A stretch of 64,000 bases of DNA from Savitreella phatthalungensis (Eukaryota): the NCBI GenBank assembly GCA_051599415.1, contig AP039691.1:186001-250000 (forward strand), read 5' to 3'. The position numbers and the translations under genes are program-made. Of the stretch, positions 888 to 14,106 are shown piece after piece. The notes below the pieces were generated by a model that did no database searches, was not told the DNA's origin, and worked only from the letters and a program-made list of their open reading frames with translations. The stretch's first letter is position 1. Every line of letters starts with the position of its first letter.

Positions 888-1970
888 ATGCGACTGAATC
901 GTATCTCATTCATCCTTTGTCTGCTACTGCAAGCAGCTTGCCACGACATCATCCATCGGACGCGCAGCTGGGCACTCGAACGCATCTCCTTGCAGCGCGA
1001 ACGACCCAACATGCAGATCCAACGGGCTCGCGAGGAGTTGGGGTTGGATGCATTCCACTATCTGTATGAGTCTCTTGCCAAAGGCGTCGGCTCGCACGTT
1101 TACATTCTCGGGTCCGGTATTGCGTGCGATGCCGACTTCTTCGACGGCCATGCACACTGCTCACCGGCTGCGGACGTACGATCATTCAGCCACATTCGAT
1201 CGCTGACAGGCAAGTCGCCCTCATCACTCGACACTAAAGGCGATTCGACGGCGACCTGCGTAGCATCCGTTGTAGGCCACTCGAGCATTGGCGTCTCCCC
1301 GAACGCTACGATTCACTCCGTCAAGATACTCTCCGGCACGTCCCACTACGCACGCACCTCCTCGATCATCAAAGGAATCGAATACGTTATCACCCGTCAG
1401 CGACTCGGCCACCATTCCGTCTTGCCGATCCTCGTCAACACCTTGATGATGACCAGGAACGGCCAAGGCGCTATTCAGACCGCATTCGATCAAGCCATTT
1501 CAGCCAAAGTGGTAGTCGTCTCGTCAGCTGGCGTAGAGCAGAAAGACGCTTCATATCTGATTCCGCACGAAAACCCCGGAGTGATCGTCGTCGGTGGGAC
1601 AACGATCAAGGATGAGTGGTGGCAGCCAAGCAATCACGGTCCAACGGTCACTCTGCTTGCGCCTGCAGAGCGTGTGCCGGTCAATATGGTCGTCAGGACA
1701 GGTCCAAAAAGATCCATCACGATTGAAGTTAGCAGCTATTCATCGTCCACGCTGTTGGCAGCGTCTCTCGTCGCAGGAACCTTAGCCAATTGGCAGTCAT
1801 ACCGAACCATTCGTGAAGTGCCAAATCTCACCCCTGCGCGACTCAAAGCTCTTCTCCTCGCACAGACTAATCCTGACCGGATCGACAATGTCCCAAGCAA
1901 CACCGTTAATAAGCTCCTGTTTGCAAGACCGCCTGAGTATCCTGCTGGGACGGCGGCTGCAGCTGCGTAG
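888..1970 (+). CDS. Secreted subtilase-like pseudo-protease copy 2 (360 aa)
   Basis: Signal peptide MRLNRISFILCLLLQAAC is followed directly by SWALERIS, then YLYE. Asp site VYILGSG (D->G), His site lacks His, SSAGV (N->V), SSTLLAASLVAG (S->L). Confidence 0.85.
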   Translation: MRLNRISFILCLLLQAACHDIIHRTRSWALERISLQRERPNMQIQRAREELGLDAFHYLYESLAKGVGSHVYILGSGIACDADFFDGHAHCSPAADVRSFSHIRSLTGKSPSSLDTKGDSTATCVASVVGHSSIGVSPNATIHSVKILSGTSHYARTSSIIKGIEYVITRQRLGHHSVLPILVNTLMMTRNGQGAIQTAFDQAISAKVVVVSSAGVEQKDASYLIPHENPGVIVVGGTTIKDEWWQPSNHGPTVTLLAPAERVPVNMVVRTGPKRSITIEVSSYSSSTLLAASLVAGTLANWQSYRTIREVPNLTPARLKALLLAQTNPDRIDNVPSNTVNKLLFARPPEYPAGTAAAAA

Positions 1971-2898
1971 GGGCTGTTCGCTCGAAGGAGAACAGAGATA
2001 TAGAGAGCAAGAGACGTCCGAGCAGTCATACGCCTCATCGAATGAGATTGAAACACGAGAAAGAAGAATAGACAGCCGATCGGAACGGAATCGACTTGTA
2101 ACGCGCTGAGTCAGTTCTACAGATTATGCTTTCCGAAGGTGTGGGTATTCTTCCGATGGGCTTGACATCATGTTTAAGCTCCCCTGCCTCAACGTCTGTG
2201 GCCCACAATCGGTGTGACCAAAGTCGAGATTTCCTCTCTCAGGTGATCATGACGCCCAGTGCTCTCAATCAGCATCATACATGACGTGCTGCTAGACGTC
2301 CAATTTGCTCAGGTCGGGCACTTCATCCCCACCTCCTCCACATTCGCCTCCGCATCCGCATCCGCATCCCGCCGTCGTGGGAGCATTGTCTCGTCAGCAC
2401 AGCTAGCCGCTTGCCACTTTACCATTCGGTCTCTTCTTTGGAGAACGGGTCTAGCACTATACAAGCGACGTGAGGATCTCTCCTTAATTCCTGCTTCTCA
2501 TCAATCGCTTTACCCGGCCTCATTCGCGCCCGGCAATCACTACTTCCGGCTATTCGGAAGACCCCGGCAACACTTCCTTCGTCGTCGTTGAACCTCGACA
2601 TCGCGCATCACACGACGTCTGTACTCGACTGGTTCAACCTTGTTGGCCAATCAGCAGAACGTTCGTCATCAGACATCGCCTCATTTGCAGCTATTCTGTC
2701 GACTGACCCATATCAGCCTATTCTTCGTCACGACCCAGGGTTGTCGACGTCTCGCTGCCGATTACACCCGTCTTCGACTCGCTGACGGCTGTACAAATAC
2801 GACGATCGCAAGTCTGACTTGGAGACTCCTTGTACAGAGAAGACAGCGGCCTCATACGACACGACCTGATCCGGCTCCTTATCCAATCACCTCAAGCC

Positions 2899-12721: not shown

Positions 12722-13044
12722 GAGACGGTGGATAATGATTTCGGCGCCCTGCATCCAAGAGGACCCAAGAAGCCGAGATAGTCACACGAGGCGGTCAAAG
12801 AGAGAATGAAGCGGGCAGGATGAAGCGAATAGGCCAGATTTGGGCGGTAGAAACTTGGTGCTAATTGCTAGTCTGATGACCTGCACGCGTCTGTAGAGTG
12901 TCTTATGTATGCGAGGTGTGTTATGTTTGACCGTGGCGTGGGATGGGCGTGAGGCATGGTACGAACGCTGCCGAGAGGGTGATTGAAGCGAAAGGAGCGG
13001 AACTCAAATAGCTCGATTCGTCCGCCTTAACGAATGAAGCGAGC

Positions 13045-14106
13045 ATGGCGTGGCTGCTGTGTTTCTTCATTCAGATTTGCTCAGCTGTGTTGCGGACTCA
13101 GGATAACGCTGTTTGGCCCTTGGAGCGGATCTCGACGACAGGTCCGCTGCAAAACATCTTCGATGCCGATGCTGCGCTGTTCGGCCAACGCAGCAAGCGT
13201 GACACTGTTTTTAAATACACTTATGACAGCCGCGGCATGGGAGATGGGGTTGACATTATCGTTATCGGACCGCGAATCGACCAGTTCCTAAGCGAGCTTG
13301 GTGGTTACACTGGCAGAGCTAGCTTTCCGGTCAATCCACTGAAGCAAGACGGCTCACTTGAGTGGCCCGAGACTGGTAACTCCGTAGGCACGGCAGTGGC
13401 CGGCGCGGCTGGCGGCGTGACAATTGGCGTTGCGAAGAGGGCGTCGATTTTGTCAGTCGAGCCACCTATACAAGCACCCCAGAGCGCCATGATACGGCTT
13501 GCGAGGTTCCTGCTGCAACTGGACGGAGAACGTAGGAACAGTGTCGGCACGGTGGTCGTACTTGCCTGGTCGGGAGTTGATGCAACGCCGGCTACGACTG
13601 CAGCATTCCGAAAGCTAAGCGATTACGGCATCCATGTCGTTGCTGGTGCTGGTAATTGGCCAAAGGACACCTGCGCAACCAATTTGTATCGCAGCCTGGA
13701 GAATACCGTCGTTGTTGCGGCGTCTAGTTGGCGGGACGAGTGGTGGCCACAGAACGGGTTTGGTACTTGCGTGTCGCTCGTTGCGCCTGGCGATGGCGTA
13801 CCTGCGCTGCTGAACGAAGAGAGTCAGGAGGTGAGAGGTGGCGGAGGAAACAGCATGCTGGCTTTCATGCAGAGCACAGCCATCAGCGCCGGCTTCACAG
13901 CGGGCGTCATTGCGACCTGGCTATCGATGGGTATTTTGAACGATGCTCAGACTTTACCCGAGAACATGAAGGCGTGGCTGATACAGAACGCGGAGCAGGG
14001 CGCAATTCATGGTGTCCCTGATGGCACACGAAATGCTCTACTGAAGACTGTTGTGGTGTCAGGCGGAGCGTCATCGGCTAGTAGTTCTCCGATCTCCAGG
14101 TTGTGA
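13045..14106 (+). CDS. Secreted subtilase-like pseudo-protease copy 9 (353 aa)
   Basis: Signal MAWLLCFFIQICSA, WPLERIS, YTYD, IVIGPR (D->G), SVGTAVAG (H->V), AGAGN (Asn kept), QSTAISAG (S->A; GCC at 13879-13881). Confidence 0.85.
   Translation: MAWLLCFFIQICSAVLRTQDNAVWPLERISTTGPLQNIFDADAALFGQRSKRDTVFKYTYDSRGMGDGVDIIVIGPRIDQFLSELGGYTGRASFPVNPLKQDGSLEWPETGNSVGTAVAGAAGGVTIGVAKRASILSVEPPIQAPQSAMIRLARFLLQLDGERRNSVGTVVVLAWSGVDATPATTAAFRKLSDYGIHVVAGAGNWPKDTCATNLYRSLENTVVVAASSWRDEWWPQNGFGTCVSLVAPGDGVPALLNEESQEVRGGGGNSMLAFMQSTAISAGFTAGVIATWLSMGILNDAQTLPENMKAWLIQNAEQGAIHGVPDGTRNALLKTVVVSGGASSASSSPISRL

Follow-up and report, generated by a model that had tools for sequence, protein, structure and literature searches.

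Eight complete genes at positions 888 to 14106 of a 64,000-nucleotide stretch of the Savitreella phatthalungensis genome (C3:186001-250000, below called the window) encode proteinase K-like proteins in which a predicted signal peptide is joined directly to the mature domain, with neither an I9 prodomain nor a complete Asp-His-Ser triad. Secreted proteinase K-type enzymes are a textbook case of propeptide-dependent folding. Judged from sequence and models, the eight copies are probably functional secreted subtilase pseudoenzymes that would fold unaided or with a stand-alone prodomain supplied in trans. They belong to a cluster of 13 genes (C3:180176-200106), of which four lie entirely left of the window, one is cut at its edge and eight are complete. 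In the genome (12.7 Mb, 27 contigs) at least 55 proteinase K-like loci were counted over at least 17 contigs (57 matches among 252 open reading frames (ORFs) of the examined stretches, minus kexin and with the two exons of one gene merged); three canonical fungal proteinase K-like S8A members are present, and about 34 loci carry a divergent prodomain (LLHP...NG...RG) that is missed by Pfam, with intact triads and highly variable cleft strands. Short-type copies lacking the prodomain number 16 (13 in the cluster, one at C3:548799 and two on contig C6), and two more prodomain-less loci lie on C20 and C23.

Each of the eight copies was read as a single ORF in which the W, L, R, I and S of the motif W-x-L-x-RIS are invariant. 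The motif Trp stands at residue 24-41 in these copies and at 72-226 in the 37 prodomain-bearing paralogous loci. The preliminary description had placed the motif about 10 residues after the signal, with no room for a propeptide; this holds in 8/8, at a distance slightly longer than stated, since the Trp lies 13, 12, 14, 16, 15, 18, 10 and 11 residues past the best 9-residue hydrophobic window in copies 1-8, respectively. Signal peptides were called from hydropathy and by eye, with best hydrophobic 9-mer scores of 1.8-3.2 in all eight (weakest in copy 6, 1.80), and the motif begins approximately 8-11 residues past cleavage sites judged by eye. All 16 short-type ORFs carry their own N-terminal hydrophobic stretch at an equally short distance from the motif. 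A longer N-terminal loop was considered as a built-in chaperone and set aside, similar loops being present in prodomain-bearing paralogs.

The motif was aligned with proteinase K 'QTNAPWGLARISS' (1ic6), and cleavage of copy 3 as judged by eye gives AILTQPHTSW, in register with the processed proteinase K N-terminus. The copy 3 sequence was aligned to aqualysin and proteinase K (phmmer E 1e-28), and its AlphaFold2 model (pLDDT 91.4) matched mature proteinase K over the whole length (Foldseek E 5.5e-28, TM 0.90 by target, rmsd 2.7). Pfam S8 was found in 4/8 complete copies, and the remaining four were assigned to S8 by paralogy. The copies are proteinase K-like S8A proteins by fold and descent.

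Pfam I9 matched none of the eight complete copies, an absence that is weak by itself because Pfam finds a single I9 genome-wide (the sole PF05922 match, in the Prb1-like gene, against 48 S8 matches) and misses the paralog prodomains; it was dropped as an absence test after matching 0/30 of these. A family-specific profile was therefore built from 30 paralog prodomains and recovered 6/7 prodomains on which it had not been trained, the seventh being caught by Pfam and by a generic I9 profile. The family-specific profile found no prodomain in the eight complete copies (best 2.3 bits), in the 16 short-type copies as a whole or in the C20 and C23 loci, and the generic profile found none in the eight. 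When C3:166-206 kb and the surroundings of the other prodomain-less loci were scanned in six frames, the cluster region gave at best 0.6 and 2.5 bits with the family and generic profiles, while the same scan gave 47.2 bits for a stand-alone I9-like gene described below. A hit of 6.5 bits upstream of the C20 locus was discarded because it falls within an unrelated gene, in another of its frames. All eight ATGs are preceded by in-frame stops at 6-174 nt, upstream spacers are short (three of 311-323 nt and one of 477 nt common to two divergent genes), and the deposited gene models of all 16 short-type copies are of equal length or begin at a later Met, none being longer; in copies 2 and 6 this later Met excludes the signal. 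By these sequence comparisons the prodomain is confirmed absent from the ORFs of the eight copies and from their flanking DNA.

Catalytic residues have also been lost. The nucleophile Ser is absent from 8/8 complete copies and all three triad residues from 6/8, copies 3 and 6 retaining Asp and His. Genome-wide, the triad is broken in 14/16 short-type copies and 14/18 prodomain-less loci, all eight complete copies among them, and is kept in 36/36 single-ORF prodomain-bearing loci and, by inspection, in one intron-containing locus (37/37). The connection between prodomain loss and loss of catalysis proposed in the preliminary description is thus borne out (broken triad in 14/18 versus 0/36, Fisher p 9e-10, a value that overstates the evidence because the loci are related and not independent). 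The cause implied there, that an inactive enzyme was forced to lose a prodomain which it had no means of cleaving, is not supported: the triad persists in four loci without prodomain (C3:180176, C3:548799 and the C20 and C23 loci) and none of the 37 prodomain-bearing loci is dead; since the first state exists and the second does not, the prodomain was probably lost first, and its loss would have preceded and released the loss of the triad, the reverse of the order first proposed. CspC, reported to function with an uncleaved prodomain (PMC6636752), contradicts the premise that loss of catalysis rules out keeping a prodomain. The comparison made with PCSK9 is loose, in that PCSK9 does keep its prodomain bound, as was said, but autocleaves and is reported to work in that state (PMC13276728).

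The locus at C3:180176 (C3:180197-181240; L033:4197-5237) combines Asp-His-Ser and the oxyanion Asn with no prodomain, and together with L046:5836-7020 it is the best candidate for a prodomain-free active protease. A further triad-intact, prodomain-less ORF, C23:22442 (L038:1443-2618), has no clear signal peptide and may have an upstream exon.

Four-fold degenerate sites were 20-34% identical in 6/6 pairs of dead copies whose amino acids were 38-43% identical, as in five active pairs; synonymous sites in the dead copies are thus near saturation, and frames are intact in 16/16. W10, L12, R14, G56, D227, A243, P244 and G278 (model numbering) are invariant in all 16 short-type copies, and mean column conservation over 296 columns was 1.08 in the 16 versus 0.92 in 32 active paralogs. 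The most relaxed columns in the 16 are the His, a nearby Pro, the Gly before the nucleophile, the oxyanion Asn, the Ser and the Asp. These comparisons show purifying selection on the fold of the dead copies and release of the catalytic columns. Both C6 copies have Gly, Met and Gly at the triad sites and intact frames; since all three replacements are identical, the two diverged after inactivation.

Trees were built with TPPII and kexin left out and with both exons of the C6:494k locus left out throughout; alignment A3 left out C20, C23_58185 and the C6:494k exons, and one free quick tree and the clade test left out the long rows C20_222158, C10_8859 and C23_22415. Constraining the 16 copies to one clade improved on the free quick tree by 27 log-likelihood units (51 rows, p-AU 0.82), and a single origin of the lineage is favoured by these sequences.

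A stepwise history is consistent with these results. The prodomain stretch would have been deleted in an ancestor within an expanded proteinase K-like family, presumably in a single event that left the state now seen, so that the signal peptide was joined to the mature N-terminus and signal peptidase would yield the N-terminus that autoprocessing usually yields. Because maturation no longer required self-cleavage, the triad would have been free to decay, as it has in 14/16 copies of the lineage. Tandem duplication has given 13 genes here and three elsewhere, with intact frames and purifying selection on the fold. The products, whose cleft residues vary, may serve outside the cell for binding or as decoys and not as proteases. 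Within this history, unaided folding of the ISP type would have slightly better than even chances, and help in trans from the stand-alone I9-like protein slightly worse than even. Precedents for both elements have been reported, as ISP1 folds without a chaperone prodomain (PMC11419036) and inactive fungal chitinases sequester substrate (PMC8364246).

Several points weigh against this account. PCSK9 lacking its prodomain was reported to be secreted solely when the prodomain was co-expressed (PMC13276728), and this speaks against unaided folding being easy in this subfamily. Saturation of synonymous sites leaves no usable ratio of nonsynonymous to synonymous rates (dN/dS), and selection cannot be dated. 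Cleft strands are equally variable in active divergent paralogs and in dead copies, so the variation does not point specifically to binding and no ligand can be read from the cleft. The tree backbone does not resolve, the prodomain-less label has to change 3-5 times on free quick trees, and a p value above 0.05 does not demonstrate a clade. Introns occur in the family (one C6 paralog has one), a YAG with a loose branch motif lies between ATG and motif in 3/8 window copies (6/16 overall), and a prodomain divided over small exons could evade a six-frame scan. The species, a Taphrinales yeast isolated from healthy pineapple leaves, is reported to cause no symptoms on host leaves in a three-week test (PMC8877625, PMC13531029).

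The search for stand-alone I9 genes suggested in the preliminary description was run and yielded one secreted I9-like gene (P0387; C3:384519-385514, minus strand; L062:3520-4515), which supports, as a candidate, the suggested action of an I9 protein in trans. The gene was located by a paralog-prodomain query as an ORF outside all S8 loci. Its intact ORF encodes 331 aa: a predicted signal peptide is followed by a linker rich in Ser, Thr and Pro, then by a prodomain of the family type (47.2 bits), and the low-complexity tail is rich in Ser, Thr, Pro and Asp. No S8 sequence lies within 7 kb of it, and the cluster is approximately 185 kb away on the same contig, so that it is not adjacent to its putative clients. 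With its own signal peptide, long arms and paralog-type prodomain, it looks like a truncated family member. The protein was directly matched to six paralog prodomains; no PF05922 match or other Pfam domain was recorded for it, its match to the I9 profile was weak (E 0.004, probability 8), and it was placed in the Atlas I9 cluster at 0.91. Its model (pLDDT 78.8) gave as top two of 48,161 chains 8gko_A (Z 5.6, rmsd 5.1, 83 aligned) and 8c4x_B (Z 5.5, rmsd 3.9, 67 aligned), with 1v5i_B at Z 4.8; 8gko_A and 8c4x_B are short chains of subtilase entries and were read as propeptides, with Z scores tied with unrelated ferredoxin-like folds. Foldseek gave no match to this model with E <0.001 (best 0.26). 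Among 12 ortholog candidates of 182-580 aa the protein found itself alone. Three further prodomain queries of the genome (1, 6 and 9 other matches) gave no second stand-alone gene, these searches being insensitive, and the paralog prodomain profile gave five chance-level matches and no propeptide among Protein Data Bank (PDB) sequences.

A complex of the stand-alone protein with copy 3 was modelled at 0.83, against 0.00 for the best of three controls, with at least 89% of contacts shared between runs and a partner pLDDT of at least 74; the mark applied was reached by 51/78 solved and 2/108 mismatched microbial pairs and by 71/105 and 2/126 eukaryotic pairs, respectively. In the model the contacts fall on two surface helices and the cleft of copy 3, which we take to be the classical propeptide pose. 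Since similar subtilisin-propeptide complexes have been solved, the score shows likeness and compatibility and not binding. The modelled docking face was conserved at 0.61 in prodomain-less copies against 0.39, and column conservation revealed no special docking-face signature in the prodomain-less copies.

It is possible, if doubtful, that the prodomain-less clade depends on this protein as its chaperone or escort in trans, which would be one particular form of the history set out above. In its favour are the intact, secreted, family-type ORF with no S8 neighbour, the structural and Atlas matches and the modelled complex, as well as the reported dependence of ASP on a separately encoded chaperone (PMC5638518), the reported secretion of PCSK9 S386A with its prodomain in trans (PMC13276728) and the citation of PBI2 and PoIA as chaperones (10.64898/2026.05.05.722857). 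Against it, the complex resembles solved ones and close cousins passed 10/12 times, the gene is distant from the cluster, the docking face is just slightly better conserved in prodomain-less copies, the Z scores are middling and the Foldseek and I9 profile matches poor; moreover, the protein could equally inhibit the approximately 40 triad-intact proteases, a function reported as typical of free I9 proteins in fungi (10.64898/2026.05.05.722857). A broader version, in which the family is split into two gene classes and the secreted prodomain chaperones or escorts in trans a prodomain-less clade of mostly binding or decoy proteins and a few active proteases, was considered unlikely.

Less probable by far is that the copies are decaying pseudogenes, rendered unfoldable by prodomain loss and then drifting at the triad. 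The triad is lost solely where the prodomain is lost, triad-broken subtilases are classed as pseudogenes in published surveys (PMC5371821), and the clade has no close relative in the best 150 of 1.84 billion representatives; these points are outweighed by 16/16 intact frames with a hydrophobic start, by amino acid identities of 38-43% at near-saturated synonymous sites and by scaffold residues invariant in all 16. It is very improbable that the clade consists mainly of prodomain-free active proteases whose seemingly dead members use an altered catalytic constellation: the triad is intact in two of the 16 short-type copies and in two other loci without prodomain, and Asp and His persist in copies 3 and 6, but the Ser is missing from every complete copy and all three residues from most, and the replacements differ among copies. 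Hidden exons encoding a prodomain, which would make the observation a gene-model artefact, are scarcely credible, since the intron of the C6 paralog, the possible acceptors in three copies and the several prodomain-bearing paralogs without a clear signal peptide in the ORF are set against upstream DNA without prodomain likeness by two profiles, short spacers and 16/16 ORFs with their own hydrophobic start at the same short distance from the motif.

The cluster genes of the window are as follows, all on the plus strand except copies 4 and 5. The copy cut by the window edge retains its 3′ part at 1-576 (whole gene C3:185473-186576, 367 aa), lacks the prodomain and keeps none of Asp, His and Ser. 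Its sister, copy 1 (888-1970, 360 aa, Trp at 28), has Asp replaced by Gly, His by Thr and Ser by Leu; it has no Pfam match and was assigned to S8 from paralogy and an Atlas value of 0.97. The C-termini of these two proteins both read PEYP-x-G-x-AAAAA. Copy 2 (2899-4260, 453 aa, Trp at 32) has Ser for Asp, Ala for Ser, Ile at the His site with a His one position earlier, and a Ser/Arg/Asp-rich tail. Copy 3 (4584-5738, 384 aa, Trp at 41) retains Asp, His and the oxyanion Asn, with Ala for Ser. Copy 4 (6096-7130, 344 aa, Trp at 36) and its sister copy 5 (8016-9107, 363 aa, Trp at 25) have all three triad residues substituted, copy 5 with an acidic insertion ahead of the His helix. Copy 6 (9585-10685, 366 aa, Trp at 38) retains Asp and His, with Pro for Ser, and has a weak signal peptide. 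Copy 7 (11096-12721, 541 aa, Trp at 29) carries an internal insertion and a His/Ser/Arg-rich tail, and its replacements (Asp by Gly, His by Met, Ser by Gly) are identical to those of the C6 pair. Copy 8 (13045-14106, 353 aa, Trp at 24; Asp by Gly, His by Val, Ser by Ala) is the final cluster gene and is followed by an MKT1-family gene. Elsewhere in the window, a 578-aa ORF on the minus strand (25755-27491) combines a pseudouridine synthase of the TruB family with a RibD C-terminal reductase domain. Among the prodomain-bearing paralogs most are single ORFs; the C6:494k locus (L050:4031-5472), taken at one stage as frameshifted, is better read as intron-containing, its catalytic domain being split by a short GT..CTGAC..AG intron. 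A paralog at C13:333626 (L051:3127-6336) is a 1069-aa ORF, far exceeding other paralogs in length.

The literature searched, with most subscription papers outside it, held no description of a fungal prodomain-less pseudo-subtilase clade; a secreted subtilisin expansion in Protomyces is mentioned, without domain detail in the part available (10.1101/594028). In fungal surveys, copies with a broken triad or likely to be inactive were discarded ahead of the count (PMC5371821, PMC5567314), and such clades would be overlooked because of this removal. One small genome holds every state relevant to the loss of dependence on a propeptide, with 37 loci having prodomain and triad, four having the triad alone, 14 having neither and one free prodomain. 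Prodomain-independent folding in the secretory pathway and natural prodomain action in trans in a eukaryote are made testable, and a prodomain-free active member would ease production of this enzyme class. Each single element has precedent, including free fungal I9 proteins and substrate-sequestering inactive fungal hydrolases.

Compared with known systems, the copies resemble proteinase K, Alp1 and Prb1 in mature fold (TM 0.90), N-terminal motif and predicted signal peptide. ASP of Aeromonas sobria, which has a kexin-like fold, is bacterial and active, with a single external chaperone (ORF2) encoded adjacent to it, whereas here one distant candidate would serve numerous eukaryotic clients, most of them dead. 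It is likewise reported as a propeptide-deficient secreted subtilase, the C-terminus of ORF2 binding the ASP catalytic site (PMC5638518). Unlike the fungal S8A enzymes described in published surveys, with I9 and triad (PMC5371821), the lineage lacks I9 and has a broken triad in 14/16 copies. Bacillus ISP1 is likewise reported as a subtilase domain folding without a chaperone prodomain (PMC11419036), but it is intracellular and active and keeps a 17-residue inhibitory extension, while the copies are predicted to be secreted and have no such extension. PCSK9 is also of the proteinase K subfamily and acts by binding, and a dead mutant is reported to work with the prodomain in trans (PMC13276728); unlike the copies, natural PCSK9 is triad-intact and autocleaving and retains the prodomain of its own chain. 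CspC of Clostridioides difficile is reported as a functional subtilase pseudoenzyme whose triad is degenerate (PMC6636752), but retains an uncleaved prodomain clamped in place. PBI2, PoIA1 and TrI9 are, like the stand-alone protein, free propeptide-like domains, and theirs are reported to bind the subtilase cleft (10.64898/2026.05.05.722857); unlike them, the stand-alone protein has a signal peptide, long Ser/Thr/Pro-rich arms and a paralog-type prodomain.

Copy 3 found itself alone as a close relative among 118 matches, the others being 24-38% identical, and the best 150 profile matches (149 screened) comprised 29 proteins of the same genome and otherwise generic or multi-domain subtilases. 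Of the outside homologs that start with Met and contain the motif (278), 22 had it within 61 residues, and by our reading seven join the signal directly to the mature domain, two Planctomycetota-labelled proteins with degenerate repeats being among the seven. The signal peptide is directly ahead of the mature motif in P0130 and P0166 (labelled Planctomycetota), P0196 (Calcarisporiella) and P0230 (Auriculariales), which are predicted gene calls from unrelated lineages, the two fungal ones possibly owing to missed exons. P0130, P0133 and P0166 (two labelled Planctomycetota) have a signal peptide and two or three tandem proteinase K-like domains with several triad sites degenerate, and such proteins may be a parallel case in bacteria. 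By sequence comparison, then, the direct joining of signal peptide to mature domain is a rare architecture and not a unique one.

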